Made by a program: the position numbers and the translations under genes. Source: Spironucleus salmonicida (Eukaryota). From it: a stretch of 64,000 bases of DNA. The notes beneath the pieces were generated by a model. That model saw only the letters and a list, made by a program, of their open reading frames with translations. It did not search any database and had not been told where the DNA came from. Location of the stretch: assembly GCF_000497125.1 (NCBI RefSeq), contig NC_090604.1, forward strand, positions 268,651 to 332,650, in the 5' to 3' direction. This document shows positions 7,351 to 45,577 of the stretch, piece after piece. Each line of letters begins with the position of its first letter. The stretch's first letter is position 1.

Positions 7351-9516
7351 ATGTCAAACTAGTGTTCTTCTAGCGATAAAAATTCCTGCAATGAAGGTTA
7401 CTTCTGCCCATCAAACGTAGGAACTACTTCTACAGCATGCCTTACATGCAAAAAAGAGTGCGCCACCTGCACAGCAGAGAACACGTGTCAAACCTGCACT
7501 AATGGGAACGTTTTAGGCGGAACCACCTGCACCGCCTGCGTTTCAGGGTAGACCATGAAATGTACCTGCGGGTCTGCTGAGAACTGCTCTATTTGCGATG
7601 TTACTGATCCGACTAAATGCGACGTCTGCGCGAATGGACATTTCATGTCTGGGACTACCTGCACGGCTTGTGTAGCTAATCAAATGGCTCCGTGTACATG
7701 CAGTACCGCTGTTAACTGCGGAACCTGCGCTACTGATACAAGTAAATGCAAAACTTGCATCAACGGATACGATCCAAGCGGAGCAACCCCTTGCCAAACA
7801 TGTAAGGCTAAGTTCTTTGAGGATACTACTACAATTCCTAAAAAATGCACGGCTTGCTCTACGAACTGCACAACCTGCTCTTCTAGCTCTGTTTGCAGCG
7901 CCTGTGAAGATGGATTTTCTATCAAAGATAATAAGTGCATAGCCTGCACTACAAGCTAAACAACTGCCTGTACGTGCAAGGTTGCCAAAAATTGCTAAAC
8001 ATGTGATACTACCAATACGGGCAAATGTTCAACGTGTATAGGAAACTTTGACAAATCTGGAAGCACTGCTTGCGAGAATTGTTTGACAGGATTTTTCAAA
8101 GGGGGCGTTTCTGGGAGTGAAATTTGCACAAAATGCCCAGAGACCTGTGCAACGTGCACAGCAGAAAACACCTGCCAAACGTGTAAAGATGGAAACGTTT
8201 TAAGTTAAAATTTGTGTGTGGCCTGCACTGCAAACCAAATGACTGCCTGCACGTGTACGTCTGCCAAAAACTGCTCAACATGTAAACCTAGTGAGATGGG
8301 CAAATGCGAAACATGCATCAACAATTTTGACCCATCTGGAGACACTCCTTGCGAGAAATGCTTGTCAGGATTTTTCAAGGAAACAAAATCTGCTATCGAG
8401 ACTTGCACAGCCTGCTCTGAGAACTGTACAACCTGCTCTTCTAGTTCCGCTTGCACAGCTTGCAAGGATGGATTTTCGATCGAAAGCAACTAGTGCGTAG
8501 CCTGTGGAGACGAAAACTGCAAAACCTGCCCAACTAACAAAGACGCCTGTACGGCGTGCAAAACTGACTTTTCGCTGTAAAGCGGTAAATGCGAGAAAAC
8601 ATGCACAGCAGGTGACGGCAGCTGCGCCTCGAACCAAATCTGCGACACGATCTGCAAAGACTGCACCAGCAACTGTACCACGTGCAAAGATGCTGTTGAC
8701 AAATGTGTGACTTGCAAGCCCGGCTTTATGTTAGACAGTGAAAAATGCACAGCGTGCCCCAACGGCTGCGCGAACTGCGATGATGATAAAGCCATCTGCA
8801 AGCTTTGCATGGACGACTTTTTCGCCACGGATAAAACCTGTACGGCTTGCACGTCAAACAGTACGGAACAGTGCACGTGCGGTACAGCAACGAACTGCGC
8901 GACCTGCGATACTCCTGATAAAGGAAAGTGCGCCACCTGCATCACCGGCTACAAAAAGGCCACAAATGAAACCTGCTCCGCCTGTGCCGACGGCTACCTG
9001 ATGGTAGATATGGCCTGCAAGTAATGCGAGGCCAAGTGCGCCACGTGCTCCGAAAGCCTCGAAACGTGCGATACCTGCGCCATTTAGCACACCATGAGCA
9101 TCAATTAAACATGCGAGAAGGATTGCACGGGTACACTGGCAGAGGGCAAGGCGTGCACTGCCGAAGCGATTGTGGACTGCGGGAGCAGCAGCCAGGTAAC
9201 TGCGTGCAAATGCGATACTGCTGCAAACTGCCTCTAATGCAATAGTTCGGATAGTAAAAAGTGCGCATCCTGCATGCCAGGCTACAAATTAGAAAATGAA
9301 AAGTGCACCACCTGCGCAGACGGGGCCACCGCCGTGGGCTCATTCTGCTTCCTACAAGGCGAGACGCTCAGCACCAACCTCTCCAGCGGCGCCGTTGCGG
9401 GCATCGTCATCGCTGTCCTGGTCGTTGCGGGGGGAGTCGCCGGTGCCGCTTTCTGGTACATGAAGAAGTCGAAGGCCAACTAGGAGGTGGAGAAGCAGAA
9501 CTTCAACATGCAGTGA
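7351..9516 (+). CDS. Large cysteine-rich membrane protein, CRMP2-type (721 aa), copy B1
   Basis: Code-6 ORF MSNQCSSSDKNSC..., dense CxxC repeats, TM GAVAGIVIAVLVVAGGVAGAAFWY, tail MKKSKANQEVEKQNFNMQ-TGA (in CAGTGA). An in-frame ATG at 7345 is an alternative start. Confidence 0.93.
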
Positions 9517-10313
9517 GAATTTACGTGGAATTAAGTTTGGAACTATGCATATGGCACCCCGTTGAATGGTGATACTTTAGGAGAGCAAACTTGAGAATCT
9601 GTGATTAACAAATCTGGAAAGTTGGTTTCTTATTCATTACCAATCCTTGCTTGCTATTATTCGGATATTTTCAGCATTATTGGGCTAGCAAGTAACGGCG
9701 TATTTAAATGCTGCAAATTTATCAAGTCCTGGGGCTCTGCTAAACTGTTATTCCGCAGCATTTTGCTAGCTTAAATGTTATACTGTGCATCGAATTGCTA
9801 AAACATGCAATGGCCCTTGGAACGGGATGCAACGGATCGTAGACGTTAAATAGAAGTTCCAAGATGAAATTAGCAGGTAATTGGGTACGCGAATGGTAAG
9901 GAGAGAATTTGCAGTTCTAAGCTAATTTTGAATGTTAATGGAAATTTGTAGCTAGACTAAATTTTATGGTAGTTATTCTAGTTTATAGTGTTATGCTACC
10001 ATTCTGTGAGCTACTGTAGACTGACTAAATACAACTATGAGGAGCCATCTGGAAAAGCGAAGATAGAGTATAACTTGGATAAGAAGTTAAGAATTCGAAT
10101 CGAAATAGTTTATAGAATTGTATAATAGAACCGTTGGTTATTTGAAAACGATTATTCGAAGAGGGGAGAATTCAAAAATAATTTTTTATGTATAATTATT
10201 TAACCAGACCCAATGATCTTTATAAACTTCGATAAATAGGTTAAGTGATTATCATATCAAATTATAATTTTTGATAATTTTAAATTATATGGGTCAGTTT
10301 TTAAGTATAATAG

Positions 10314-11250
10314 ATGGAGAACTTCACAAATGCAAAAGTCTTAATTAAAGATAATAATTGTAAAGAATCGGTGTACATTGAAGTAGTCGTAAATAAAATG
10401 ATACTAGAGGTATAAATAAATTTAGTAAAGGCGAACGAATAAGATTACTGAATAACTTAAAAAAGAAGATAAAAGTATTCCCTTAGGGAAATGAAAACAA
10501 ATACTTCTAACACAAATCGGATGCACTTAAAAGCAATCAAGAATATTACAAGTATCTAATAACTAACAAGGAACTAACGTATAAAAATAAAACATACTAT
10601 TAACAAACATAATATCTATTAAAGGATTATGAAGTAGAATCTGCTAAAAAGATTTAACCAATTGCTAGAGATTTGTATTTCTGGTTAATTGCAAAATAAC
10701 TATTTTTAAAATAAATAAAACAGATTGATAAGCAGTAGTTAAGGATCAAGAAGCAAAACCAACTTACAAAGAAGCGATATAGGTTCTGTAAAAATAATAT
10801 ACCTTAGAGGACTACTCAAGGAGGTTATCAAAAATATTGATTAAACTAAAGTAAACTTCAGCCAAGCTAATTATAATAATATGCAATCGTCTTTATTAAA
10901 GTTTGAAGAGGATAGTAAATGTTAAATTTAGATATTATAGTAAAATATTAATGACGAGATATATTTCGTTAAAATTAACAGACAGGCTATTGTATGACAT
11001 GGTCGAATAAGTTGCAGCGTTATCAGAGTACTGTTTTAAGGGTAAGAAATAAGGTGACGTTAGACTGTACAACACGATAGCTATTTTAGACACGATTCTG
11101 TAAGAAAACTAATCAACTTCATCTAAGGTATGTAAGATTTACTTATAAGAATTACTTAATAGAATTTTGAAAAACAATAAACAAAAAGATCTCATTAAGT
11201 TAGTTGAGAATCTATTTTAAATAGTAACAAAACGTTAACATGGTGTATGA
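10314..11250 (+). pseudogene. Decayed copy of ~312-codon hypothetical ORF
   Basis: Collinear with 38950-39888. Has the shared in-frame TGA plus two 1-nt homopolymer deletions (A6 vs A7, T5 vs T6) and a CGA>TGA change. Confidence 0.5.
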
Positions 11251-12350
11251 TGTGAATCTATTTTAAAATTAGTAATAAATTTTATTTTTTACTTCTATAA
11301 TATTTTTTTTATTTTTTAAACTCAATAATAAATGAGAGATACTATTTTTTCTGTTAATGGAAGAATGATTTTATATGCTCTTCGCTGCTGTGGCTTACCC
11401 CATTGATCTATTCCTATCAGAAATCATGGTCTTTGACTTCGAGTAAGTTAAATTGTTATCTGAGATGGTTTTCTAAAAAGTTAGATATTTTGTGCTCATA
11501 TTTTGAATCATAAAATTGTGGTCCTCTTTATGGATGGCCGTTTTGAATTTTTAATATGCTGGAACCACTAATTGTTGACCTTGTTCGGGGTTCCTTCTAC
11601 TAGTAGATAGGTTCAATTAAGTTACAAATGAAATTCAGTTTAGTGGGTTTAGAAAACCTTCAGCATTTTATGGTTCGCGATACAAATTTAAAATATTTGA
11701 TATTTAAAAAAATCTTTAAATAACCTTCATGTGGTACTTAATGATGGATACTACTGAATTAATATAAAAATTGCTAGCTGAAATTAAAATTATTTAACCT
11801 TTGATCTATAAAAATTCACACTATAGATTTGTCTTAATAAAGTTAATATTTATAATTTTACTTTTTTAATAATACTAAAAATATGCAGTCCGTGTTATTA
11901 CTTTTTATTTAAAACTTATTTGCTGAAGCTAATCAATCAATTTAAGTGTTAAAATTTATATTTGACGGAAACTGAGTATTTAATAATGTAAGTTTACTCG
12001 AGAGGATATTTTATAAAATTAGATATTTTTACTATTATATTTAAAAACTTCAAAACTATAAATTTATGGAATGGTAAAAATGCATAAGATGCTTTAAAAT
12101 TAATTCTAATTAACTACTTCTTTCATTGCGCTTTGTTTTTAGTCATATTTATTAATCTTTAAAATAATTTTAAATCATATCCACCGAAATGTGCTAATAT
12201 TTTGAAATTCTTTATCAAACTCAGATTTAATGAAGTAACTTTATATACTATTAAAGATAAATAGCTTGGAAATGAAGTAAATTGAACAAAAAGTATAAGA
12301 TTAAATTGTAAACTATTCCTACTATTATATTTCTAACTGGAAAATGGCTA

Positions 12351-13226
12351 TCACTTCTTGGCCTTCTTGACAAAATAATAAGCTAAACCGCCACCAACTG
12401 CTCCCACCACAATCAATACTGCTACTACAATTCCAGCTACAGCCCCTCCTGAAAAATTAGAACCTTCGCCAGAGGATGATAATGGTAAACAGATTCCAGC
12501 AACTGGTTCATATCCATATGCACAGTCAGTACAATTACCTTGATCATTAATAGTATATCCCGCTAAACATGTTGCACATTAGGTTTTATCATCATTACAT
12601 GTAGCGCATCTAAACATATTTGCACATTTGCACTAGGAAGTAGATGAAGCACTGCAAGAAGTTGAAGTTCCATCCTAGCAGAATTATCCATCAGCAATAT
12701 CATTACAACCTTCAATACATCTTCCGTCAATAGTGGTAACAGGTTTTGCTTTGTGTCCTTCGCATTCTAAGCAAAAGGTAGCAGATGTACAGTAAGCACA
12801 GTCTTCTTAGCAAGGCTTGCAATGTTTAACAGAGAAATCACAATATCCAAGATGCTAAGCATTACAGTCTTTATGATTAGAACATGATTTTACACAGGTT
12901 TTAGATGTTGTCTCTAAAATAAATCCGGCTTTGCACGTAGTACATTAGTTTTCCTATTCTTCACAAGATTTACAGTTACTGTTGCATAACCCGCATGTTT
13001 TTGCACTGGTTAAAAAATAGTTAGCTATGCAAACGGAACATTTTCCATCTTTACACAATTGACAACGTTAAGTCGATACATTGTCTTCACAATTACAACC
13101 ATACCTAAAATTAATTAAATTATCAGCACAAGACTTACAATCAACGATATCATCATCGCTAGTAGGACAATACGTATCTATTTTGCACTTATTCTCACTG
13201 CCTGTACACTGACCACTCGCTGCCAT
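12351..13226 (-). CDS. Cysteine-rich membrane protein, CRMP1-type (291 aa, KKAKK)
   Basis: Code-6 ORF MAASGQCTGSENKCKIDTYCP...[35 protein letters not shown]. Absent from the ORF track because of TAA/TAG codons. Confidence 0.92.
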
Positions 13227-13628
13227 TTTATGTTTGAGATATTTTTACAGATGTATAATATTGTATATATTGAGTTTTATACTATTGATTTACAAATATT
13301 GATTTAATTATAAACAAATGTATATTACTGTATTTTAAAAAGTGCGATCATTTATTATTTTATCAATTTATATGTATATCTAACATATATTTCAAAAAAT
13401 TATTGAATGCATTTAAATATTAATTAAATTGTAAAATCGGAATAATATATATTATTATGAGTAATATGCTAAAATGATAAAAGCTTAATACATTAATTCA
13501 ATTTCTATTCATATTCAATATACTTTGTCCACACATTTCCAAATCTGAAAATAAATAAGTAATTGATAGTATTTTATATTACTCCATGTTAATTTCTTAG
13601 GAAAATCAGAATTTATAATAAACTATAG

Positions 13629-13779
13629 TAGTAAGTAACCAAGACTAAAAGCAACTTTCTGTTGACTCTAGTTTAAAAATGGCGAGGCAAGTTATGATCG
13701 CATCGCTATCCTGAAAATGGATTGGCGGTTTTGAAACTAAAGCCAACGGAAACTTCCTTTTAGTCTTGGTTACTTACTA
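13629..13779. repeat. 151-bp hairpin with ~51-bp imperfect terminal inverted repeats (MITE-like)
   Basis: tagtaagtaaccaagactaaaag... at the left is the reverse complement of ...cttttagtcttggttacttacta at the right. About 6 mismatches over 51 bp; TA on both outer ends. Confidence 0.75.
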
Positions 13780-14824
13780 GTCTTGCAATAATTAACATTT
13801 CTTAAATGATGACTAGAAAACGTGCTAGAAGGAAGAAGATTAAAATATTTATTTAAAAACATAAAAAAGTATGTGCGTGAAATATGGAGATGCCATTTCA
13901 GTGCTGTTTTACATTTTATACTATCACCTTTTTATACCATCACACATTCAACGGTTCTTATAATTTCTCTAAATATTTTTAAGATAATTTTCCATCGGAA
14001 AATATGACTTGTAAAAGCAAGCATAACACCTTAAGACCGAATTTAACTTATTTTGAAATAATTGCCTTTTTACATCTCTAAAAGATGTCTGATTTGGCTA
14101 GGGCGCCAAATTAAATTACAATCTCTAAAGACATAATATTCGAATCTGAATGCTACCTCAACGCGCCTTGACAAGATATTTTTAAATCTGCAAGAAATAC
14201 AGAATGAAAGGTAAATCAAATATATTTTTTCGTTAAAGGGAGACAATTGCTTTCTCAAAATTCTAAAGCTGTAATGTTTTAGACTAACAATCACTATTCA
14301 GACCTGTGTAAAGTTAATTTAATGGTTTTAAAAATATTAGTTATTTTATATTTCGCAACGCGAAGTATAAAGGGCTGATCTTTTAAAATAATCACTCAAA
14401 TTTGGCTGGGCTGAATGGTGACTTGCTGCTGACTGATTTCTGCTAATAATATATCTAGAGATCTATTTCAGTGTAGGAACTATCGAAACTGCTTCCAAAC
14501 ATATCAAAACTCGGCCTAGCGTTACTAATTAAGCCAAAAATATAATTTCACTTTTTATTTTTGTGCTGCTAAATATTAGTGCAAAACATACAGCTGATTG
14601 AATTTAGAGAATTAATTATCTTGGCTACTCCTAAGTTCGCTTACTTAAAAATATCATGTGGGTGCAGATAGTACTTCATCAACCATAGAAATAAATTTTC
14701 CGTAGTTTTAAAGAAAATCTAAGTCGGTTCAGAAATATAGTACTAATTTGTAATGTGTCTATCTGAAATAGTTTCCACTCGCAGTCCACCTTGCCATCCA
14801 TATACTCCAATTCAATGTAAATTC

Positions 14825-16963
14825 TCACTGCATGTTGAAGTTCTGCTTCTCCACCTTCTAGTTGGCCTTGGACTTCTTCATGTACCAGAAAGCGGCACCG
14901 GCGACTCCCCCCGCAACGACCAGGACAGCGATGACGATGCCCGCAACGGCGCCGCTGGAGAGGTTGGTGCTGAGCGTCTCGCCTTGTAGGAAGCAGAACG
15001 AGCCCACGGCGGTGGCCCCGTCTGCGCAGGTGGTGCACTTTTCATTTTCTAATTTGTAGCCTGGCATGCAGGACGCGCACTTTTTACTATCCGAACTATT
15101 GCATTAGAGGCAGTTTGCAGCAGTATCGCATTTGCACGCAGTTACCTGGCTGCTGCTCCCGCAGTCCACAATCGCTTCGGCAGTGCACGCCTTGCCCTCT
15201 GCCAGTGTACCCGTGCAATCCTTCTCGCATGTTTAATTGATGCTCATGGTGTGCTAAATGGCGCAGGTATCGCACGTTTCGAGGCTTTCGGAGCACATGG
15301 CGCACTTGGCCTCGCATTTCTAGCAGGCCATATCTACCATCAGGTAGCCGTCGTCACAGATGGAGCAGGTGCTGTCTGACGCCTTTTTGTAGCCGGTAAT
15401 GCAGGTGCCGCACTTTCCTTTATTAGAAGAATCGCAGGTAGCACAGTTAGTTGCTGCACCGCACTTGCACTGCTTTATCTTGTTTTACGTACAAGCCGTA
15501 CAGGTTTTATCCGTGGCGAAAAAGTCGTCCTTGCAAACCTTGCAGGTGTCTTTATTGTCGTCGCAGTTCGCGCAGTTGTCGGGACATGCTGTGCATTTTT
15601 CACTGTTCAACATAAAGCCGGCCTCGCAGGTCACGCACGTGCTTACTGCGCCCTTACACGTGGCGCAGTTGCCGGCGCAGTCTTTGCAGATCGTGTCGCA
15701 GATTTGGTTCGGGGCGCAGGTGCCGTCACCTGCTGTACATTTTTTCTCACATTTACTATTTTTCACAGAAAATCCATCTTTGCAAGCCGTGCAGGTGTCT
15801 TTGTTAGTTGGGCAGGTCGTGCAGTTTTCGTCTGTGCAGGCTACGCACTTGCTGGAGTCGATCGAAAATCCATCCTTGCATACGGTACAAGCTGAACTAG
15901 AAGAGCAGGTTGTGCAGTTTTCAGAGCAGGCCGTGCAAGTATCATTCCCATCTTTGGCATCCTTGAAAAATCCTGCTACGCATTTATCACAAGGAGTGTC
16001 TCCAGATGGGTCAAAATTGTTGATGCACGTTTTGCATTTACTTGTATCAGTCTCGCATGTTGAGCAGTTTTTAGCATTCTGACACTTGCAGGCAGTCATT
16101 TGGTTTGTACTGCATGGGACGCAGGTACTGTTGGTTAAAACGTTTCCGTCTTTACATGTCTAGCAGGTGTTTAATGCAGTACAGGTTGCGCATTTACCAT
16201 CGCATGCTGTGCAAGTATCAGTACCAGAATCACCCCCTTTGAAAAATCCTACCAAGCAGTTTTAACACGGAGTGCCATCGTTAACATCAAAGTTTCCTAT
16301 GCACGTTTTGCATTTGCCCATCTCACTAGAATTACATGTTTAGCAGTTTTTGGCAGCCTTGCACGTGCAGGCAGTTGCTTAGCTTTCAGTGCAGGCTACA
16401 CATTTGTTGTTTATGAGAGAAAATCCGTCATCGCAAGTTGTACAAACGGAACTGGACGTACAGGCCGTGCAGTTATTAGAGCAGGATGTACATTTACTAG
16501 GAGTTGCAGAAGTATCCTCGAAGAATTTCTCCTTGCATTTCTCGCAAGGGGTTTCTCCGTTTGGATCGTAGTCGTTGATACAGGTCGCGCATTTGCTCAT
16601 ATCATTAGCGCAAGTCGAGCAGTTCTCAGCAGAGTCGCATGTGCAGTTTGTGGTTTACCCTGAAACACAGGTGGCGCAGGTGGATCCACTTTGAACGTTT
16701 CCGTTAGTGCAGCTTTGGCAGGCGGTATCTTCACTTCCTGTGCAGGTAGTGCATTTCGAATCGCAGTCTGCGCAGGCTTCCCCACTAAGATACTTTCCAT
16801 CGGCGCAGGTTAAACATGTTGCATCTTCTGCGGATGTTCCTGTGCAGGTGGCGCACTCGTCTTTGCATTTGATGCATGGTGTGGACGTAGAGGCTACATT
16901 TGATGGACAGAAAGTACCTTCACTGCAGGTAGTTTTATCGCTAGAAGAACACTCATTAGTCAT
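14825..16963 (-). CDS. Large cysteine-rich membrane protein, CRMP2-type (712 aa), copy B2
   Basis: Code-6 ORF MTNECSSSDKTTC... with the same TM and tail as B1. Convergent with B1. Confidence 0.93.
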
Positions 16964-19900: not shown

Positions 19901-21759
19901 GATAATGCCGGCAATCGCACCACCACCTATTTTATTCTGCTAGCCTGCGTCCTACTTGGGCCAGCACAATCTTCCTCTAACTTCATACCCGTCCGTACAT
20001 TCTGTGCACGCCCCGCCTTTCGCCTTCACTATATTAGGTAAACATGTCTCACATGCAGCATTAGCGTCATTGCAGGAGGCACAGTTTACAGCATCTCCGC
20101 ATTTGCAGGCCGAATCAAGCCCTTCCGCGCACGATGTTGGAGCGCCATTCTTGCAGTATTATCCATCTTGGAGGTTATTGCAGATGGTCGTGCACGTTCC
20201 GTCTATAGTAGTAGTATGTGAGCTTGAATTACAGAAGTTGCACACTGTTTTTGAGGAGCAAATAGTACAATTTGATTCGCATTTCACGCAGCGATTTACG
20301 GTCAAGTCGCAGAAAGTCGAAAATTCATTTTAGCAGCCTTTTAAAGAATTGCAAACTCTAACGCATGTATCATTTTCCATGGTGTAGCCCTCAGCGCAAG
20401 CCTCGCATGAATCAGGCCTCGTACACTTACCGCACCCCTTTGAACACAAGGTGCACTTATCTTTCTCTAGAAAACTTCCGGGGATGCATTAGGAGCATTT
20501 TTACTCTGCGCATGCTCTACAATTGGTAATAGCTGTATTGTCCACACAGTAGCAGCCTTGACCGAGTTTTATATCATCGGAGCAAGGGAGGCATGTAACT
20601 TCAGTGCTGCCGGTGGCCGGGCAGTAAAATCCTGCCTGACAGCGGGCATTTACGCTGTCACATGTTCCGGCGAAGATCATTTTTGGAAGGGTGGATGCAA
20701 GTATTATAGCAGAATAACCGTTATATAAAATAACTTACCAGTTTCGAATTTATTGAATATTGCTTGATATGGTGTATAAATTATTATATCCAAAAACTAA
20801 AGACTGAATAACGTATTTATATCTATAAAGTATATATTTGTGAGAACAGTTTTCCCAGTGTTTTCTAGCTTGTAGATGTATATAAGGTAAGTCTCCGAAT
20901 TGGGTCTTGTAGCGGAACTGCATGAGCCTACCACGCGCACTGGTATCAGCGCGGTACACCGAGAGGGCCTTGGAGCAGTGAACTGGGATATGCAGGTACG
21001 CGGTAATAACACCTCCAGAAAGCGCACTCTGCAACGCAGCAAGCAGGCTTTGGGGGCTCTTACCACGCCCAACGATGCTAATAAATAAGTGCGCTTCCCA
21101 GACAGCCTAGCATGCTCCTAAGAATTTACGCAAGGTATCCCCTCAAGGGCCTCATTGAGCTAGGCAACCTCCTGGAAGTTGGTCTGGGCCGCGCTGCAGT
21201 GGTTCTGCTGCCCACCTATACCACAGGCTGGCTCTAACCGCGTTATCAGCTGGGTCTCGCTCTCGGGATAGCGAAATACGGAAAGAAGCTGCCCCTAATT
21301 ATGTGGCTGCATGCGGCACCTTCCCATTCCCTGGTATTGCTTCTCCAATTTTTATTTCTTGTCCGAAGCGCACTTAGCAGGCTTTCCTGCACGTTCGCAT
21401 TCCCCAATTACCATTTATCGCACCGCCTCGCAATACAGACCGACTGCAGCCTCCGAGCTCTGCCCCTGGGCTCCTGTATCAGCTATATTGAATATGGGTA
21501 TATGCAGAAACTGGGGAATTCCGTTTTTGCTATATACGTTGTATAGTATATAGTTATAATAATGATCTTAATAAACTAAAAATGTAAACCACGCTTCCTG
21601 CACCTAGCACCGCCCTGCACTTTGGCGAGAAAGTTCTCAGCATTTCCAAACACCGCAAATTCTGGTTTTGAAGCGTCATAATCGGTGCACCATATATATT
21701 CTGACGTTCAGGACGCGCCAGCCCATATCGTTATGTCACCAATCTGCTTTTTGTGACGG
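16964..21759. repeat. Inner arm (left) of inverted duplication; partner 31208-36007
   Basis: Near-identical reverse complement. Coordinate sum is 52967 for the arm boundary and both CRMP ends. Identity stops at ...gtgacgg (21759). Confidence 0.92.
19826..20680 (-). CDS. Cysteine-rich membrane protein, CRMP1-type (284 aa, KKARK)
   Basis: Code-6 [24 protein letters not shown]...[14 protein letters not shown]. Confidence 0.92.
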
Positions 21760-34200: not shown

Positions 34201-36007
34201 AAGGCACTTCCTGCAGCTATGGTCAGGACGGCGGCAAGGGAGGTTTGCCGAATGTTCTGTTGGGGATGAGGAGAAGTGGGCGGAGGAGCATGAGATGTTA
34301 GCGGGGTTGTGCAGGAAATGCTACCAGGATTAGCGTATGTACTATATTGAATGCAGTCGTTTAGTTTATTGCATTAGAATGTGGTTTGAATAGTTTTAGT
34401 TTTGAATAGTTGTATTTAGCTAGCTATTTAGTATTTAGATAATATTTCCTAATACAATTATAAGTAGTAAAATATTTACTACTCATTCCCAAGTAAATAA
34501 TGCTTAATATAATATATGTTACATGTACAAAAATAAAAATCAATAACTGAAGCTTGACTTATGTTAAACTGAAACTATATTACTTATAAATTGATTAATT
34601 TATCGAGCTTCTGTAAAATAGGGTAATACATAATATTATAGGAAAAGGAAAATGAAAAGGTAAATTGTATGTATTATCCAAAACTTATCAGGTTTAATCC
34701 TAAAAGTGTTATGATAACTAATGAATATAATATTAACATAAAAATATTTTCCCATCTAATTGAACTTAGTCATTCTCAGCTAAGGATATGACAGATTAGA
34801 ATGTCTATTACTTAAATTTTACAAATTTAGTTATTAAGCCTTAGATCATATCATAGATGGTATAAGGATAGTGGAAAGTGAAAGTTCTTACCCAATAATG
34901 TAGTCAGTGAACAAACCTATCTCTCATACCACATGCTATAGAAATAATAAAATATATTCTATGCTAGCATTGCTACTTTAGGAAAGCATGTAAGATAAGC
35001 TAAAGTTAAACCTAGGTTTATTAATATTCTGGCATACTGTGCTGCAAGGGGAATGCATGTATAGACTCAAGGCTGATTAGTGGGACAGCTGGGATCTGAA
35101 TAGAAGTGGTGTCAACACCTATTACTACATCTTAACTGAAAAGTAAGGGAAACCTGTATTACTAGTAGGAAACTAGAATTTAGGATGCTATCAGTGAAAA
35201 CATACCAACAGAAGAATACGGTACCAGCCAAACTTCTGATACCTCGGGGGTATCGAGCATGGATAGTAGCACGGGTTCTGGTACGGTCCGGAGTGGCTGG
35301 TATGATCCTGTGTATTTAGGTGTCAGGCTAGCCGAGAAGACATTATTGAAACCATATTAGCCATTCTCAGCATTCTTTCAGTTTACCATATAAGAATGAC
35401 ATAAATATTTTTGAGTTTTGCAGCCATGTTAGTCTAAATACTATCCGAATAAACTATTCACTACTATTTTAAAATATGAATTATTTTATTATACTAGAAT
35501 AATATTGTTAGCTTCGGTCAGCATAAAGTTGGTTTGAGCAGTAGTTATGTTTAAATACCCATAAGTCCAACTATCACCAGCAATCGGGTATTTAGTAAAC
35601 TTACTGCTATTTCTGCAATAACAGGAGTATTATATAATATATGAATTTTTCACTTTTAGTTTTTGCAGTATTATATTAGTATGCACAACTATTATAAACT
35701 CAATTTAAAGATTTACGTGTTTTAAAGATTATAAGTTACTACGCACTTTGCATAAACTATTATAACACCACTCATGCCTATAATAAAGGCATCACCATTT
35801 CTTTTGTTAAATCTACTGCGATTTCTCTACAACTACTTTAAGTAAAATTTACTAAATTATACTTATTTGCACAATATCAATTCCTCATTTAATAGCAAAC
35901 GCTATCCATAAAATATTTCACTTCCACTTCAATAGTGAAAAACACGAAACTGCAATCCTCGGTATTATTCACAGTTACACTGTAGTCATGTTTCCACTTC
36001 TATCAAA
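31208..36007. repeat. Inner arm (right) of inverted duplication; partner 16964-21759
   Basis: Reverse complement of the left inner arm; track ORFs at 31414-32217 mirror those at 20750-21553. Confidence 0.92.
32287..33141 (+). CDS. Cysteine-rich membrane protein, CRMP1-type (284 aa, KKARK)
   Basis: Code-6 [17 protein letters not shown]...FIKKARK-TGA; mirror of 19826-20680. Confidence 0.92.
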
Positions 36008-38152
36008 ATGTCAAACTAGTGTTCTTCTAGCGATAAAAATTCCTGCAGTTAAGGGACTTTCTGCCCATCAAACGCAGGAACTACTTCTGTAGAATGCCTT
36101 ACATGCAAAAAAGAGTGCGCCACCTGTTCAGGAGACACAACAGAAACTGTAACATGTTTAACCTGCGCCGATGGAAAGTATCTTAGCGGGGCAGCCTGCA
36201 CAGACTGCGATTCGAAATGTGCAACCTGCTCAGGAAGTGGAGCCAGCGCCTGCCAAACCTGCAAAAATGGGAACGCTCTAAGCGGAACAACTTGCTCTAC
36301 CTGCGTTTCCGGAGACACCAAAAAGTGCACCTGCGGTTCGGCTGAGAACTGCTCTACTTGTTCGACTGATATGACAAAATGCGCTACCTGCATTGGTGAA
36401 TATGACATGGCTGCGAATCCTCCTTGCTCAAAATGCAAGGAAGGCTACTTTGAGAATACTGATACCCCAAAAACCTGCACAAAATGCGATGAGAAATGTG
36501 CAACCTGCGCAGGGAGTGGAGCCAGTGCATGTATAACCTGCGCAAATGGGAACACTCTAAGCGAAAGTTCGTGCTCCACCTGCACGACAAGCTAAACTAC
36601 TGCCTGCACGTGCAAAATGGCGAAAAACTGTTAAACATGTGATACTACCGATACGGGCAAATGCTCAACGTGCATCAACGACTACGATCCAACCGCAACT
36701 ACCCCATGCTAAGCATGCAAGGACAAATTCTTCGAGGATACTTCTGCAACTCCTAGTAAATGTACATCCTGCTCTAATAACTGCACGGCATGTACGTCCA
36801 GTTCCGCTTGCACGGTTTGCGAAGATGGATTTTCTCTCATAAACAACAAATGTGTAGCCTGCACTGAAAGCTAAACAACTGCCTGCACGTGCAAAATCGC
36901 GAAAAACTGTTAAACATGTGATACTTCCGATTAGACAAAATGCAAAACATGCATTAATAACTACGATCCTGCCGGAACCACTGCTTGCGCGAATTGTTTG
37001 ACAGGATTTTTCAAGGAGACCAAAAATGGGAATGATACTTGCACGGCCTGCTCTGAAAATTGTACAACCTGCTCTTCTAGTTCAGCTTGTACCGTATGCA
37101 AGGATGGATTTTCGATCGACTCCAGCAAGTGCGTAGCCTGCACAGATGAAAACTGCACGACCTGCACAGCTAGCAAAGACACCTGTACGGTTTGCAAAGC
37201 TGACTTTTCGCTGTAAAGCGGTAAATGCGAGAAAAACTGCAAAACAGGTGACGGCAGCTGCGCCCCGAACCAAATCTGCTCAACGATCTGCAAAGACTGC
37301 ACCGGTAACTGTGCCACGTGCAAGGATGCAGTAAGCACGTGCGTGACCTGCGAGGCCGGCTTTATGTTGAACAGTGAAAAATGCACAGCATGTCCCGACA
37401 ACTGCGCGAACTGCGACGACAATAAAGACACCTGCAAGCTTTGCAAGGACGACTTTTTCGCCACGGATAAAACCTGTACGGCTTGTACGTCAAACACCAC
37501 AGAGCAGTGCACGTGCGGTGCAGCAACTAACTGCGCTACCTGCGATTCTTCTAATAAAGGAAAGTGCGGCACCTGCATTACCGGCTACAAAAAGGCGTCA
37601 GACAGCACCTGCTCCATCTGTGACGACGGCTACCTGATGGTAGATATGGCCTGCTAGAAATGCGAGGCCAAGTGCGCCATGTGCTCCGAAAGCCTCGAAA
37701 CGTGCGATACCTGCGCCATTTAGCACACCATGAGCATCAATTAAACATGCGAGAAGGATTGCACGGGTACACTGGCAGAGGGCAAGGCGTGCACTGCCGA
37801 AGCGATTGTGGACTGCGGGAGCAGCAGCCAGGTAACTGCGTGCAAATGCGATACTGCTGCAAACTGCCTCTAATGCAATAGTTCGGATAGTAAAAAGTGC
37901 GCATCCTGCATGCCAGGCTACAAATTAGAAAATGAAAAGTGCACCACCTGCGCAGACGGGGCCACCGCCGTGGGCTCATTCTGCTTCCTACAAGGCGAGA
38001 CGCCCAGCACCAACCTCTCCAGCGGCGCCGTTGCAGGCATCGTCATAGCTGTCCTGGTCGTTGCGGGGGGAGTCGCCGGTGCCGCTTTCTGGTACATGAA
38101 GAAGTCCAAGGCCAACTAGGAGGTGGAGAAGCAGAACTTCAACATGCAGTGA
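36008..38152 (+). CDS. Large cysteine-rich membrane protein, CRMP2-type (714 aa), copy B3
   Basis: Code-6 ORF MSNQCSSSDKNSCSQGTFCP...KKSKANQEVEKQNFNMQ-TGA. Confidence 0.93.
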
Positions 38153-38949
38153 GAATTTACGTGGAATTAAGTTTGGAACTATGCATATGGCGCCCCGTTG
38201 AATGGTGATACTTTAGGAGAGCAAACTTGAGAATCTGTGATTAATAAATCTGGAAAGTTGATTTCTTATTCATTATCAATCCTTGCTTGCTATTATTCGG
38301 ATATTTTCAGCATTATTGGGCTAGCAAGTAACGGCGTATTTAAATTCTGCAAATTTATCAAGTCCTGGTGCTCTGCTAAACTGTTATTCCGCAGCATTTT
38401 GCTAGCTTAAATATTATGCTGCGCGTCGAATTGCTAAAACATGCAATGACCCTTGGAACGGGATGCAACGGATCGTAGACGTTAAATAGAAGTTCCAAGA
38501 TGAAATTAGCAGGTAATTGGGTACGCGAATGGTAAGGAGAGAATTTGCAGTTCTAAGCTAATTTTGAATGTTAATGGAAATTTGCAGCTAGAGTAAATTT
38601 TATGGTAGTTATTCTAGTTTATAGTGTTATGCTACCATTCTGTGAGCTACTGTAGACTGACTAAATACAACTATGAGGAGCCATCTGGAAAAGCGAAGAT
38701 AGAGTATAACATGGATAAGAAGTTAAGAATTCGAATCGAAATAGTTTATAGAATTGTATAATAGAACCGTTGGTTATTTGAAAACGATTATTCGAAGAGG
38801 GGAGAATTCAAAAATAATTTTTTATGTATAATTATTTAACCAGACCCAAGGATATTCATAAATTTTGATAAATAGGTTAAGTGAGTATCATATCAAATTA
38901 TAATTTTTGATAATTTTAAATTATATGGGTCAGTTTTTAAGTATAATAG

Positions 38950-39888
38950 ATGGAGAACTTCACAAATGCAAAAGTCTTAATTAAAGATAATAATTGTAAA
39001 GAATCGGTGTACATCGAAGTAGTCGTAAATAAAATGATACTAGAGGTATAAATAAATTAAGTAAAGGTGAACGAATAAGATTACTGAATAACTTAAAAAA
39101 AGAAGATAAAAGTATTCCCTTAGGGTAATGAAAACAAATACTTCTAACTCAAACCGGATGCACTTAAAAGCAATCAAGAATATTACAAGTATCTAATAAC
39201 TAACAAGGAACTAACGTATAAAAATAAAACATAGTATTAAGAAACATAATATCTATTAAAGGATTATGAAGTAGAATCTGCTAAAAAGATTTAACCAATT
39301 GCTAGAGATTTGTATTTCTGGTTAATTGCAAAATAACTATTTTTTAAAATAAATAAAACAGATCGATAAGCAGTAGTTAAGGATCAAGAATCAAAACCAA
39401 CTTACAAAGAAGCGATCTAGGTTCTGTAGAAGTAAGATACCTTAGAGGACTACTCAAGGAGGTTATCAAAAATATTGATTAAACTAAAGTAAACTTCAGC
39501 CAAGCTAATTATAATAATATGCAATCGTCTTTATTAAAGTTTGAAGAGGATAGTAAATGTTAAATTTAGATATTATAGTAAAATATTAATGACGAGATAT
39601 ATTTCGTTAAAATTAACAGACAGGCTATTGTATGACATGGTCGAATAAGTTGCAGCGTTATCAGAGTACTGTTTTAAGGGTAAGAAATAAGGTGACGTTA
39701 GACTGTACAACACGATAGCTATTTTAGACACGATTCTGTAAGAAAACTAATCAACTTTATCTAAGGTATGTAAGATTTACTTATAAGAATTACTTAATAG
39801 AATTTTGAAAAACAATAAACAAAAAGATCTCATTAAGTTAGTTGAGAATCTATTTTAAATAGTAACAAAACGTTAACATGGTGTATGA
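38950..39888 (+). pseudogene. ~312-codon hypothetical ORF with one internal TGA (39085-39087)
   Basis: MENFTNAKVLIKDNNCKESVYIEVVV...QDY*ITQKKKIKVFP...LVENLFQIVTKRQHGV-TGA in one code-6 frame. No domain recognised. Confidence 0.55.
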
Positions 39889-40973
39889 TGTGAATCTATT
39901 TTAAAATTAGTAATAAATTTTATTTTTTACTTCTATAATATTTTTTTTATTTTTTAAACTCAATAATAAATGAGAGATACTATTTTTTCTGTTAATGGAA
40001 GAATGATTTTATATGCTCTTCGCTGCTGTGGCTTACCCCATTGATCTATTCCTATCAGAAATCATGGTCTTTGACTTCGAGTAAGTTAAATTGTTGGCTG
40101 AAATGGTTTTCTAAAAAGTTAGATATTTTGTGTTCATAAAATTATGATCCCCTTTCTGGATAGCCGGTTTTCATTTTTAATATACTGGAATAACCAATTG
40201 TTTACCTTGTTAGGGGTTCATTCTACTAGTAGATAGGCACCATTAAGTTCCAAATAAAATTATGTTTAGTGGGTTTAGAAAAACTTCAGTATTTTATAGT
40301 CGTGATACGAATTTAAAATATTTGATATTTTAAAAAATCTTTAAATAACCTTCATGTGGTACTTAATGATGGATACTACTGAACTATTATATCATTGCTA
40401 GCTGAAATTAAAATTATTTTACCTTTGATCTATAAAAGTTCACACTATAAGTTTGTCTTAATACAGTTAATATTTATAATTTTACCTTTTTAATAATACT
40501 AAAAATATACCGTATTTGATATATTTTTATTTAAAACTTATTTACTGAAATTTATCAATCAACTTAAGTGCTAAAAGTCATATTTGAAGGAAACTGAGCA
40601 TTTAATAATGTAAATTTACTCGAGAGGATATTTTATAAAATTAGGTTATTTTTACTATTATAGTTAAAAACTTCAAAACAATAAATTTATGGAATGGTAA
40701 AAATGCATAAGATGCTTTAAAATTAATTCTAATTAACTACTTCTTTCATTGTGCTTTGTTTTTAGTCATATTTATTAATCTTCAAAATAATTTTTAATCA
40801 TATCCCACGAAATGTGCTAATATTTTGTAATTCTTTATCAACCTCAGATTTAACGAAATAACTTAATACACTATTAAAGATAAATAGCTTGGAAATGAAG
40901 TAAATTGAACAAAAAGGATATGATTAAATTTTAAAATATTCCTACTATTATATTTCTAACTGGAAAATGGCTA

Positions 40974-41849
40974 TCACTTCTTGGCCTTCTTGACAAAATA
41001 ATAAGCTAAACCGCCACCAACTGCTCCCACCACAATCAATACTGTTACTACAATTCCAGCTACAGCCCCTCCTGAAAAATTAGAACCTTCGCCAGAGGAT
41101 GATAATGGTAAACAGATTGCTGCAACTGGTTCATAGCCATATGCACAGTCAGTACAATTACCCTCAGTATTAATAGCATATCCTGCTAAACATGTTGCAC
41201 ATTAGGTTTTATTATCATTACATGTAGCGCATCTAAACATATTTGCACATTTGCACTAAGAACTAGATGAAGCACTGCAAGAAGTTGAAGTGCCATCCTA
41301 GCAGAATTGCCCATCAGCAATACCAGCACACTCTGCAATACATTTTCCATCGATAGTGGTCACAGGTTTTGCTTTGTGTCCTTCGCATTCTAAGCAAAAG
41401 GTAGCAGATGTGCAGAAAGCACAGTCTTCTTAGCAAGGCTTGCAATGTTTAACAGAGAAATCACAATATCCAAGATGCTTACTATTGCAGTCTTTATGAT
41501 TAGAACATGATTTTACACAGGTTTTAGATGTTGGTTCTACAATAAATCCAGCTTTGCACGTAGTACATTTGTTTTCCTATCCTTCACAAGATTCACAGTT
41601 ACTGTTGCATATGGTGCATTTTTCTGTAGTATCTAAGAAATAATTAGCTATACAAACGGAGCATGTTCCATCTTTACACTATTAACAATTTTTAGTCGAT
41701 ACATTTTCTTTACAATTACAACCGTATCCAGTAATAATTGCATTATCAGCACAAGGCTTACAAGCAACGAGATCGTTATCGTTCGTAGGACAATACGTAT
41801 CTATTTTGCACTTATTATCACCGTCTTTACACTGACCACTCACTGCCAT
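40974..41849 (-). CDS. Cysteine-rich membrane protein, CRMP1-type (291 aa, KKAKK)
   Basis: Code-6 ORF MAVSGQCKDGDNKCKIDTYCP...LAYYFVKKAKK-TGA; paralog of 12351-13226 with the same length. Confidence 0.92.
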
Positions 41850-42250
41850 TTTATGTTTGAGATATTTTTAAAGATGTATAATATTGTATATATTGAGTTT
41901 AATACTATTGATTTACAAATATTGATTTAATTATAAACAAATGTATATTACTGTATTAAAAAAAGTGCGATCATTTATTATTTTATCAATTTATATGTAT
42001 ATCTAACATATATTTCAAAAAATTATTGAATGCATTTAAATATTAATTAAATTGTAAACTCGGAATATTATACAGTATCATAGGTAGTATGCTAAAATTA
42101 TAAAAGCTTAATACATTACTTGAGTTTCTATTCATATTCAATATGCTTTGTTCACATATTTCCAAATAGTGAAATAAATAAGTAATTGATATTATTTTCA
42201 TTACTACATGTTAATTTCTCAGGAAAATCAGTATTTATAATAAACTCTAG

Positions 42251-42402
42251 TAGTAAGTAACCAAGACTAAAAGCAACTTTCTGTTGGCTCTAGTTTAAAA
42301 ATCAATGAGACAAGTTATGATTGCATCGCTATCGTAAAAATGGATTGGCGGTACTGAAACTAAAGCCAACGGAAATTTGTTTTTAGTACGTATTACTTAC
42401 TA
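42251..42402. repeat. Second, more degenerate copy of MITE-like hairpin
   Basis: tagtaagtaaccaagactaaaag...ttttagtacgtattacttacta; the right arm is partly decayed. Confidence 0.65.
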
Positions 42403-43441
42403 CTCTTGCAATAATGAACATTTCTTAAATGATGGCTAGAAAACGTGCTAGAAGGAAGAAGCTCAAAATAGTTACTTAAAAAAATATGTGCGTGAACTAT
42501 GGAGATGCTATTTAAGTACTGTTTTACATTTTATACTATGACCTTTTTACACCGTCACACATTCGGCGTTTCTTATATCTATCTCTAAATATTTTTAAGA
42601 TGGTTATCTATCGGAAAATATGACACCTAAAAGCAAATATAACGACTTAAGACCGAATTTGAGTGATTTTGAAATAATTGTTTTCTGCATCTCTAAGAGA
42701 TGTCTGATTTGCCTAGATCACCCAATTAAAATACAATCTCTAAAGAAATCATGTTCGAATCGGAATGCTGCCGCAACACGCCTTGACAATGTATTTTTTT
42801 TAAACTGTAACAAATACAGAATGAAAGGTAAATTAAATATATTTTTTTTGTTAATGAGAAAAATCGTTTTCACAAAATTTTAAATTGGTAATGTTTTATC
42901 CTAGCAAACACTATTCAGACCTGTGTATAAATCGGTTTAGTGGTTTTCAAAATATTAGTTATTTTATGCTCTGCAACGCCAATAATAATGGTTGGTCTTT
43001 TTAAAATAATTACGCAAATTTGGCTGGGCTGAATGGTGATTTGTTGCTGGCCGACTTCTGCTAATAATATATCTAGAGATCTATTCCAGTGTAGGAACTA
43101 TCGAAACTGCTTCCAAACATATCAAAACCAGGCCTAGCATTACTAATTAAGCCAAAAATAGAATTTGCTATCTATTTATGTGCTGCTAAATATTAGTGCA
43201 AAATATACATCTTATTGAAATTTACAGAATTAGTTATATTGGCTACTCCTAAAGTCTCTTACTTAAAAATATCAGCTTGGTGCAGATAGTGTTCATCAGC
43301 CATAGAAATAAATTTTATGCCGTTTTTTAAAAAATCTAACTGGGTTAAGAAAGATAGTACTAATTTGTAATTTGTCCATATGAAATAGTTTCCACTCGCA
43401 GTCCACCTTACCATCCATATACTCCAATTCAATGTAAATTC

Positions 43442-45577
43442 TCACTGCATGTTGAAGTTCTGCTTCTCCACCTCCTAGTTGGCCTTGGACTTCTTCATGT
43501 ACCAGAAAGCGGCACCGGCGACTCCCCCCGCAACGACCAGGACAGCTATGACGATGCCTGCAACGGCGCCGCTGGAGAGGTTGGTGCTGGGCGTCTCGCC
43601 TTGTAGGAAGCAGAATGAGCCCACGGCGGTGGCCCCGTCTGCGCAGGTGGTGCACTTTTCATTTTCTAATTTGTAGCCTGGCATGCAGGACGCGCACTTT
43701 TTACTATCCGAACTATTGCATTAGAGGCAGTTTGCAGCAGTATCGCATTTGCACGCAGTTACCTGGCTGCTGCTCCCGCAGTCCACAATCGCTTCGGCAG
43801 TGCACGCCTTGCCCTCTGCCAGTGTACCCGTGCAATCCTTCTCGCATGTTTAATTGATGCTCATGGTGTGCTAAATGGCGCAGGTATCGCACGTTTCGAG
43901 GCTTTCGGAGCACATGGCGCACTTGGCCTCGCATTTCTAGCAGGCCATATCTACCATCAGGTAGCCGTCGTCACAGATGGAGCAGGTGCTGTCTGACGCC
44001 TTTTTGTAGCCGGTAATGCAGGTGCCGCACTTTCCTTTATTAGAAGAATCGCAGGTAGCGCAGTTAGTTGCTGCACCGCACGTGCACTGCTCTGTGGTGT
44101 TTGACGTACAAGCCGTACAGGTTTTATCCGTGGCGAAAAAGTCGTCCTTGCAAAGCTTGCAGGTGTCTTTATTGTCGTCGCAGTTCGCGCAGTTGTCGGG
44201 ACATGCTGTGCATTTTTCACTGTTCAACATAAAGCCGGCCTCGCAGGTCACGCACGTGCTTACTGCATCCTTGCACGTGGCGCAGTTATCTGTGCAGTCT
44301 TTGCAGATCGTTGAGCAGATTTGGTTCGGGGCGCAGCTGCCGTCACCTGTTTTGCAGTTTTTCTCGCATTTACCGCTTTACAGCGAAAAGTCAGCTTTGC
44401 AAGCCGTACAGGTGTCTTTGCTAGCTGTGCAGGTCGTGCAGTTTGGGTCTGTGCAGGCTACGCACTAGTTATTTTAGATCGAAAACCCATCCTTGCAAGC
44501 TGTGCAAGCTGAACTAGAAGAGCAGGCTGTGCAGTTCTCAGAGCAGGCTGTGCAAGTATCATTCCCATCTTTGGCCTCCTTGAAAAATCCTGACAAGCAT
44601 TTCTCGCAAGGGGTGGTTCCAGAGGGGTCAAAATTGTTGATGCACGTTTCGCATTTGCCCATTTCACCAGGTTTACATGTTGAGCAGTTTTTGGCAGACG
44701 TACACGTGCAGGCAGTCATTTAGGTTGTGCTGCAGGCTATGCAATTGTCGTCTTGGATAGAAAATCCATTTTCACATGCGGTGCAAACGGAGCTAGAAGA
44801 GCAGACCGTACAATTCTCATGGCAAGCTGTACATTTACTAGGACTAGCAGAACTATCCTAGAAGAATTTGTCCTTGCATGTTTAGCATGGGGTAGTTCCG
44901 GTTGGATCGTAGTCATTGATGCAGGTGGTGCATTTACTCATATCAGAACTACAGGTCGCGCAATTTTTGAGAGACATACACGTGCAGGCAGTCGCTTAAG
45001 TACTTGCACAGGCAGTGCACGAATTTCCGCTTAGAACGTTTCCATCTTTACAGGTTTGGCAGGTGTTTTCTGCTGTGCACGTTGCACATGTTTCTGGGCA
45101 TTTTGTGCAAGTTTTTGTGGTATCAGTATTCTCAAAGTACCCTGCCTTGCATTTTGAGCAAGGAGGAGTCGCAGAAAAATCATATTCGCCGTTGCAGGTT
45201 GCGCATGTTGCCATATCAGTAGCGCAAGTTTCGCAGTTAACTGCGGATCCGCAAGTGCAGTTCATGGTTTACCCTGAAACACAGGCTGCGCAGGTGGTTC
45301 CGCTTAAAGCATTCCCGTTTGCGCAGGTTAGGCAGGCACTGGCTCCACTTCCTGAGCAGGTTGCACATTTCGAATCGCAGTCTGCGCAGGCTTCCCCACT
45401 AAGATACTTTCCATCGGCGCAGGTTAAACACATTACAGCTTCTGCGGATGTTCCTGTGCAGGTGGCGCACTCTACTTTGCATTTGATGCATGTTGTCGCA
45501 GTAGAGTCTACATTTGATGGACAGAAGTAACCTGCCTCGCAGGTAGTTTTATCGGTAGAAGAACACTCATTAGTCAT
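43442..45577 (-). CDS. Large cysteine-rich membrane protein, CRMP2-type (711 aa), copy B4
   Basis: Code-6 ORF MTNECSSTDKTTCEAGYFCP... with the same TM and tail. Convergent with B3. Confidence 0.93.

Follow-up and report, generated by a model that had tools for sequence, protein, structure and literature searches.

Mosaic CRMP2-type genes in a quasi-palindrome of Spironucleus salmonicida and the probable role of exchange within convergent gene pairs

How can four neighbouring paralogues be almost identical at one end while their closest partner changes again and again along the rest of the gene? This question is raised by four large genes, here called B1 to B4, in a stretch of 64,000 nucleotides (nt) of Spironucleus salmonicida (contig NC_090604.1, positions 268,651 to 332,650), hereafter the window. 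They are paralogous genes of a diplomonad that reads TAA and TAG as Gln, and their predicted products are CRMP2-type, VSP-like type-I membrane proteins. A sequence-only reading of the window had described them as patchworks, and had attributed these to segmental gene conversion and to the shuffling of CxxC modules across nested and outer inverted repeats. The mosaic structure of B1 to B4 is statistically solid and almost certainly real. Exchange within two convergent gene pairs, acting on a background duplicated as a mirror image, very probably explains most of it.

Changing partners along the four genes

When open reading frames (ORFs) were read with translation table 6 (TAA/TAG = Gln), B1 to B4 appeared as four intact VSP-like ORFs of 711-721 amino acids (aa), each at the place given to it by the sequence-only reading, and the pair members were 73-77% identical. 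Sliding windows of 60 nt showed that the nearest partner changes repeatedly along the gene, and the nine motifs quoted earlier for such changes were each found in precisely the genes named. The juxtamembrane GETLS was present in B1 and B2 and GETPS in B3 and B4, this being one of three sites within the constant end that unite B1 with B2 and B3 with B4. The N-terminal two-thirds of the genes vary and the membrane-proximal end is constant, as had been proposed. The near-identity of the last ~490 nt in all four genes was also borne out, the length being somewhat short of the actual 529 nt.

Some of the shared motifs were located out of register. The pair FFEDTSATPSKC.../FSLINNKCVACTES lies at aa 147/181 in B2 and at aa 241/275 in B3, a shift of 94 aa, and KCPETCATCTAENTCQTCKDGNVLS lies at aa 261 in B1 and at aa 159 in B4, a shift of 102 aa. 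Both shifts, B2/B3 and B1/B4, correspond to about one repeat unit. Each gene contains an array of three units of 93 aa (279 nt). These were assigned by anchor motifs, unit alignment and the nearest neighbour of each third of a unit, the period of 279 nt being visible in the self-comparison and in the sliding windows. Adjacent units of B3 agree at 82% in their first thirds, which points to register-shifted exchange between 279-nt units.

Near-identical tracts joined different genes at different places. B1 and B4 shared nt 887-983 (97 nt, 96.9%), B2 and B4 shared nt 148-212 (65 nt, 100%), and B2 and B3 shared nt 1013-1152 (140 nt, 97.9%) as well as nt 436-517 (82 nt, 98.8%) and 538-605 (68 nt, 98.5%), the last two with an offset of +282. 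The final 840 nt of B3 and B4 were 99.9% identical, and B2 matched both of them over its final 640 nt at ~99%. These tracts are also identical at synonymous and noncoding sites (97-100% in the tracts of the coding sequence (CDS), 98-100% in the upstream blocks) and, as a consequence, convergence is excluded. Over CDS 1180-1637, B1 alone differs at 52 sites and B2 alone at 23, B3 and B4 being 99.1% identical. For nt 91-330 a simple reciprocal exchange was considered and discarded, since B2, B3 and B4 are alike there and B1 is unique.

Permutation, run-length and likelihood tests led to the rejection of a single tree, and no consistent topology was found along the whole gene. In the global codon alignment, 180 quartet-informative sites were distributed over the three topologies as 107/37/36, and neighbouring sites were of the same type 136 times, compared with 77.4 +/- 5.6 after shuffling, a value reached in none of 10000 shuffles. 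The pairwise homoplasy index (PHI) fell below every one of 1000 permutations in both the CDS and the upstream DNA, and below 999 of 1000 in the in-register 3' part. In this last part the longest shared runs, determined by a GENECONV-like test, were beyond all 2000 permutations for the six pairs. In the upstream DNA the same test gave 0 of 2000 for two of the six pairs, 4 and 15 of 2000 for two others, and 73 and 95 of 2000 for the remaining two. Because the global in-register alignment pairs non-homologous units mid-gene (columns ~300-900), a unit-aware series was built. Its 150 informative sites fell into six blocks among which all three topologies occur (Table 1), with a segmentation cost of 43, whereas 500 shuffles averaged 82.4 and never went below 73. 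Of seven blocks given approximately unbiased (AU) tests, five allowed both alternative trees to be rejected at p<=0.005, and three different trees won; the tests did not settle the tree of the last 529 nt.

The mosaic also reaches into 1.27 kb of upstream noncoding DNA. Here a promoter-proximal block of ~300 nt (-370 to -70) shows 92-97% identity among the four genes, and this block and the homogenised 3' end bracket the variable cassette. The earlier proposal of conversion with module shuffling was upheld in that the mosaics are recombinant and the repeat units reordered, but the exchange is not confined to CxxC modules or to coding DNA. A unit of ~663-670 nt was also observed, in three tandem copies before B4 (46174-48175) and one before B2 (17554-18230), with further copies at 6081-6757 and 34742-35412.

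Mirror baseline, flipped spacer and independent contigs

Self-comparison revealed that B1 to B4 form two convergent (tail-to-tail) pairs, one in each arm of a quasi-palindrome of at least 54 kb. Its order is outer arm, B1, spacer, B2, inner arm, 9.4-kb unique centre, inner arm', B3, spacer, B4 and outer arm' (Table 1). A mirror duplication predicts that B4 is a copy of B1, that B3 is a copy of B2 and that the spacer is inverted. However, the spacer was found in direct orientation: from mid-B1 through the spacer to mid-B2 (8215-16114, 7.9 kb) the window matches 36851-44734 directly, at 91.9% identity. As the spacer is unique DNA, conversion cannot turn it, and at least one crossover between the convergent genes has in all likelihood inverted it. 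The flip also reverses the small KKAKK gene relative to its surroundings.

The proper baseline for the four genes was provided by a 2.1-kb repeat with four copies in the same palindrome (a1 to a4 in window order). Its informative sites, 202 out of 202, follow the mirror tree a1a4|a2a3, with identities of 99.4% for a2-a3 and 92.2% for a1-a4. Consequently, the mosaic is local to the large-CRMP unit and cannot be put down to the region as a whole, to the aligner or to the assembly.

Table 1. Positions of the genes, repeats and topology blocks (window coordinates; for the blocks, positions relative to the gene)
Feature	Position	Strand	Remarks
B1	7351-9516	+	721 aa; outer gene of left convergent pair; CRMP2-type tail KKSKANQEVEKQNFNMQ
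B2	14825-16963	-	712 aa; inner gene of left pair; convergent with B1
B3	36008-38152	+	714 aa; inner gene of right pair
B4	43442-45577	-	711 aa; outer gene of right pair
Outer arm	1-6757		inverted copy 47496-54227, 90.9%; begins at window base 1, may extend
Inner arm	16581-21759		inverted copy 31208-36390, 95.7%; 99% over 18570-21759 / 31208-34397
Unique centre	21760-31207		holds gene of a 1410-aa putative coiled-coil protein
Spacer S1	9533-14808		between B1 and B2; 5.3 kb, 29% GC, AT-rich
Spacer S2	38169-43425		copy of S1; direct, though surrounding arms are inverted
Small CRMP1-type gene in S1	12351-13226	-	291 aa, Cys-rich, transmembrane, ends KKAKK
Small CRMP1-type gene in S2	40974-41849	-	291 aa, Cys-rich, transmembrane, ends KKAKK
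Control repeat 'a', four copies	1-2090, 19180-21285, 31682-33787, 52140-54227		2.1 kb; small CRMP1-type gene ending KKARK
Homogenised block, B1	8988-9532	+	last 529 nt of CDS and 16 nt past stop
Homogenised block, B2	14809-15353	-
Homogenised block, B3	37624-38168	+
Homogenised block, B4	43426-43970	-
Unit array, B1	7693-8526	+	three units; alpha-beta-delta
Unit array, B2	15812-16645	-	alpha-beta-delta
Unit array, B3	36326-37162	+	gamma-alpha-delta
Unit array, B4	44432-45259	-	gamma/beta hybrid-alpha-delta
Upstream region, B1	5643-7350	+	~1.7 kb, common to the four genes
Upstream region, B2	16964-18657	-
Upstream region, B3	34310-36007	+
Upstream region, B4	45578-46850	-
Topology block	upstream -1249..-762		B1=B4, B2=B3; 18 sites for, 6 against
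Topology block	upstream -706..-21		B1=B2, B3=B4; 25 for, 0 against
Topology block	CDS 4-181		B1=B3, B2=B4; 20 for, 5 against
Topology block	CDS 237-441		B1=B2, B3=B4 (weak); 14 for, 10 against
Topology block	CDS 502-1141		B1=B4, B2=B3; 32 for, 5 against
Topology block	CDS 1180-2061		B1=B2, B3=B4; 13 for, 2 against

The stretch was contained in eight coded sequencing runs (X1 to X8) from two studies, and the de Bruijn contigs of four of them were aligned to 7001-17000 at >=98% identity. An X6 contig of 1479 nt reproduces 7362-8840 (B1 nt 12-1490) without a single difference, and one of X5, of 819 nt, corresponds to 7362-8180. Together, X5/X6 contigs span 7362-10058 (B1), parts of 15351-16952 (B2) and 12361-13191 (the spacer gene). 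Contigs of the DNA runs were short (200-350 nt), those of X1 covering all 30 bins. At the listed places where letters in the DNA runs departed from the window, they agreed with the other arm in 10 of 10 cases downstream of B1 and in five of six in the 3' end of B2, from which it follows that both arms are present in independent data.

That runs X5 to X8 are RNA is no more than a guess, and the genes cannot be ranked by contig depth. X5/X6 left 10341-12344 and 13347-15350 uncovered although the DNA runs cover both, which is RNA-like behaviour and no proof of it; the 3' end of B2 (14683-15350) was likewise uncovered, while the near-identical end of B1 was covered. The X5/X6 contigs end in adapter-like letters 11 nt inside the CDS of both B1 (7362) and B2 (16952). 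Very short or absent 5' untranslated regions together with loss of 5' ends in the library may account for this, or it may be a question of the start site. A similar adapter-like loose end was seen at 12361 in contigs of the spacer gene.

Within-pair exchange and its rivals

The course of events that we favour would start with a mirror duplication giving B4 from B1 and B3 from B2. Homologous recombination would then have taken place between the two inverted genes of a pair, with two kinds of outcome. Gene conversion would have produced the B1=B2/B3=B4 blocks, the blocks with three genes alike, the 3' end rich in G+C at third codon positions (GC3) and the promoter-proximal block, and reciprocal crossovers would have turned the spacer round and exchanged all sequence beyond the crossover point. 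The observed order mirror, direct, mirror, direct (the spacer) would call for at least three crossovers or equivalent patch exchanges, and a flipped spacer is consistent with crossovers that are odd in number. Finally, register-shifted exchange of 279-nt units, within or between genes, would have reordered the modules. The net result would be a variable ectodomain cassette lying between two homogenised blocks able to serve as recombination anchors.

On the mirror baseline each kind of event has its own expected pattern. No event leaves B1=B4 and B2=B3; a reciprocal swap in one arm gives B1=B3 and B2=B4; conversion in both arms gives B1=B2 and B3=B4, or all four alike; and conversion in one arm gives three alike and one different, as at CDS 1180-1637. 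Every 2:2 and 3:1 pattern could be derived in this manner from within-pair exchange alone, and exchange over the outer 28.6-kb repeat would not be required. The sequence-only reading had invoked both the nested and the outer repeats, with segmental conversion and module shuffling. Besides the dispensable outer repeat, reciprocal crossover accounts for some of the partner switching better than conversion does; the spacer is flipped in one arm.

Several observations nevertheless weigh against such a simple course. Mirror partners in the variable CDS are only 79-90% (B1-B4) and 83-93% (B2-B3) identical, compared with 91-99% in the flanks, a gap that calls for extra divergence or further donors. 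Nothing in the window closely resembles B1 nt 211-360 (51-68% only). The order of the repeat units is arm-specific and common to both genes of an arm, which simple within-pair exchange does not explain. Contigs of the DNA runs X1 and X4 match B1 and B2 up to homologous nt ~1255-1282 (window 8632, 15709 and 15579) and then run up to 255 letters into sequence absent from the window (<=3 mismatches), which suggests at least one more paralogue or allele with tracts in common with B1 and B2. One X1 contig (9495-10113) mixes the arms, with 10 letters of B3 type and four of B1 type at 14 differing places; either the de Bruijn path jumped from one paralogue to another, or the contig is a true recombinant. 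The contig check spans the B1-B2 half only and used de Bruijn contigs only. With regard to the statistics, four sequences cannot separate reciprocal from non-reciprocal events, and the AU p-values are optimistic because the blocks were picked from the same data, a flaw of which the permutation tests are free.

Some of these points suit another explanation, namely that the patches come mainly from conversion between the arms, over the 28.6-kb repeat, together with CRMP donors elsewhere in the genome. It would account for B1 nt 211-360, for the loose ends of the DNA contigs and for the arm-specific unit order with a gamma unit that has no source in the other arm, and the N-terminal B1=B3/B2=B4 block (20 versus 5 sites) could also be an inter-arm conversion. 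However, that block would need two conversions with identical boundaries, all the 2:2 and 3:1 patterns are obtainable within pairs on the mirror tree of the control repeat, and the unique spacer cannot be flipped by conversion. As regards outside donors, no local match to B1 to B4 of >=70% over >=25 aa was found among the 26 other proteins related at E<=1e-10. For these reasons we regard this explanation as possible but unlikely.

Within-pair exchange could also be an ongoing process. Convergent CRMP pairs might be flip-flop cassettes, in which recurrent crossovers at varying points, with the homogenised 3' ends and the promoter-proximal block as anchors, invert the spacer along with its small CRMP1 gene and each makes two chimeric ectodomains, although we consider this rather doubtful. 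If true, it would represent DNA-level antigen diversification, possibly within clonal populations, in a parasite reportedly without RNA interference. A programmed, high-frequency system, in which the cassette is flipped or exchanged somatically to give clonal antigenic variation with the 545-nt inverted 3' ends and the promoter-proximal block as anchors, seems improbable. The architecture of a variable cassette between two homogenised blocks fits it, the spacer was inverted at least once, and the GC3 enrichment suggests recurrent conversion. Moreover, S. salmonicida is reported to be without Dicer and Argonaute as well as an RNA-dependent RNA polymerase (PMC3916229), so that, on this report, control of CRMPs must differ from that of Giardia. 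On the other hand, no joints or alternative junctions were reported in the aligned contigs of 7001-17000, though contigs drop rare variants and are silent on inversion isomers. Mirror partners differ by 7-25% in the variable blocks, which indicates that most events are old. No sign of diversifying selection was found in the pairwise ratios of nonsynonymous to synonymous divergence (dN/dS), which range over 0.28-0.54 for the variable and middle parts and over 0.13-0.45 for the constant end. Finally, four intact genes, a common promoter-proximal block and X5/X6 contigs over both B1 and B2 give no sign of a single expression site with silent donors.

The constant end was considered separately, as it might simply reflect purifying selection on the protein. 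The homogenised block encodes the last 176 aa, that is, the membrane-proximal Cys-rich domain, the transmembrane (TM) segment and the tail. The corresponding 177 aa of other CRMP2s show 44-69% identity (12 matches at E<=1e-8, 11 of them named and one the window's own), against 30-52% over the full length, this being the best conserved domain of the CRMP2s, and the Pfam VSP profile matches this same part (profile positions 269-397, the C-terminal third, being the best stretch in B1 to B4). However, identity within the cluster goes much further. The last 529 nt are 98.5-99.8% identical over all pairs, B1 differing from the others (98.5-98.7%) at merely 7-8 positions. Pairwise synonymous divergence (dS) falls to 0.009-0.036 in the last 531 nt, from 0.25-0.89 N-terminally and 0.26-0.48 mid-gene. 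Homology between inverted partners continues 16 nt beyond the stop codon and then ends. In addition, GC3 is 0.72-0.74 in the constant end versus 0.50-0.51 in the rest of the genes, with GC at codon positions 1-2 unchanged. GC-biased conversion raises GC, and the GC3-rich end is the pattern that would be expected of its repeated action. Low dS and raised GC3 show that the constant end was homogenised, beyond mere conservation, and selection on the protein alone is a very improbable explanation; family-wide constraint and homogenisation in this cluster act together on the C-terminal domain.

That the mosaics are an assembly artefact, by collapsed or misjoined repeat consensus or a false palindrome, is hardly credible even in so repetitive a region and with one short-read contig mixing the letters of two arms, given the contig of another study without differences over B1 nt 12-1490, the variants of both arms in the DNA runs, arms that are 86-99% and not 100% identical around a 9.4-kb unique centre with an intact gene, the perfectly tree-like control repeat of the same assembly and the four intact ORFs.

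The encoded proteins and known systems

The proteins of B1 to B4 contain Cys at ~16%, with 46 CXXC and 5-6 CXC-anchor motifs each, and matched the Pfam family VSP (PF03302) with 44.5, 50.9, 48.4 and 50.9 bits, respectively (gathering cutoff 31.4). Each has a single hydrophobic TM-like segment near the C-terminus (aa 664-705; aa 673-705 in B1), followed in the four genes by the tail FWYMKKSKANQ(E/K)VEKQNFNMQ, in which the Giardia VSP pentapeptide CRGKA is absent. The first 40 aa gave no hydrophobic stretch (the highest 19-aa Kyte-Doolittle mean being 0.15-0.27), and the same absence is reported for S. salmonicida CRMPs (PMC3916229). That source defines CRMP-2 by at least three CXXC/CXC, a C-terminal TM domain and the absence of [KR][KR]X[KR][KR]. 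B1 to B4 have all these characteristics, the CRMP-1 motif being broken by the A at the fifth residue of KKSKA. A full-length protein search retrieved 27 proteins at E<=1e-10, one being the window's own B2 (identical to P0001) and 15 being named S. salmonicida CRMP2, CRMP1 or CRP with 30-52% identity; CRMP2s account for 10 of these 15, including the six best. Surface location of the four proteins is predicted from their homology to VSP and CRMP.

Each gene has 11-14 in-frame TAA/TAG codons. The ORF of B4 is open upstream as far as 46039, with the homologous ATG at 45577. The start context AAAatg, reported for CRMP-1 of S. salmonicida (PMC3916229; PMC9509377), occurs in three of the four genes (aaaATG in B1; taaATG in B4). 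Altogether the window contains 11 Cys-rich TM genes, the seven small ones carrying KKARK, KKAKK or RKSRK. Antisense ORFs of 409-957 aa overlap the CRMP genes at 7680-9806 (-), 35986-38859 (-), 42891-45599 (+) and 14150-15379 (+). They look low in complexity, and those searched against Pfam matched nothing there; most likely they arise simply because TGA is the sole stop of this code. The gene of the unique centre (22453-26685, -) encodes a Gln-rich protein whose sequence has a coiled-coil look, with sub-threshold Pfam matches only (DUF4200, DUF6285).

In the ampliconic palindromes of the human Y chromosome, the inverted repeats of plastids and the yeast 2-micron circle, conversion homogenises the arms and crossover inverts the spacer. 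There, the arms are near-identical throughout, whereas here only the ends of the unit are homogenised and the middle is variable. Variable cassettes between conserved flanks, changed by segmental conversion, are known from trypanosome VSG, Borrelia vlsE and Neisseria pilE. In contrast to what is seen at the present locus, those systems have one expression site with silent donors, and switching is seen in real time.

The closest named sequences to B1 to B4 are CRMP1 and CRMP2 of S. salmonicida itself, which share their genetic code and around which GC-rich duplicated regions are described, as here (PMC3916229; PMC9509377). The chromosome-scale paper states that gene conversion 'might be involved' (PMC9509377). 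In the literature, as far as titles and the beginnings of abstracts go and with supplementary tables outside that scope, no block-level mosaic, palindrome or spacer-flip analysis was found for Spironucleus. Seven identical VSP pairs, head-to-head or tail-to-tail, are described in Giardia muris, whose authors infer recombination or segmental gene conversion by phylogeny (Xu et al., 2020, PMC7641422). In that species silent pseudogene arrays near telomeres are proposed as donors (PMC7641422), whereas here the four genes are intact and no pseudogene donors were seen within the 64-kb window.

The vsp genes of Giardia intestinalis offer a close parallel. According to Adam et al. (2010, PMC2996952) they occur in inverted tail-to-tail or head-to-head pairs 2-4 kb apart, and their recombination was shown by GENECONV and DualBrothers. 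B1 to B4 resemble them in belonging to the same Pfam family, in the CXXC-rich ectodomain, the single C-terminal TM segment and the short tail, and in the tail-to-tail pairs a few kb apart. As described for Giardia, they also have flanks identical up to an abrupt point of divergence, a conserved 3' end, internal tandem repeats and recombination (detected there by Sawyer's test). Since recombination among VSP-like genes in inverted pairs is known from Giardia, our finding is expected rather than surprising. New here are the upstream mosaic, the flipped spacer, the tree-like control repeat, the arm-specific unit order and the contig match to B1. VSP-like Cys-rich proteins are candidate variable surface antigens of diplomonads, and their diversification outside Giardia is largely unstudied.

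The differences from G. intestinalis are nonetheless clear. In the account cited above, 14 of 19 inverted pairs are identical ORFs, and here the pair members are mosaics of 73-77% identity. A further Cys-rich gene lies in the 5.3-kb spacer, KKSKA plus 14 aa stands in the tail where Giardia has CRGKA, and the N-terminal hydrophobic signal-like segment is missing. Both spacer orientations and new chimeras may exist in long-read data. Unlike the vsp pairs of G. intestinalis, the two pairs lie in a larger palindrome, from which the polarity of events can be read. The locus is thus an unusually readable natural experiment, in which the palindrome gives the expected tree, the neighbouring repeat is the control and the flipped spacer very probably marks at least one crossover between the convergent genes. 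It also separates the homogenised parts, namely the membrane-proximal end and the promoter-proximal block, from those in which diversity is maintained.

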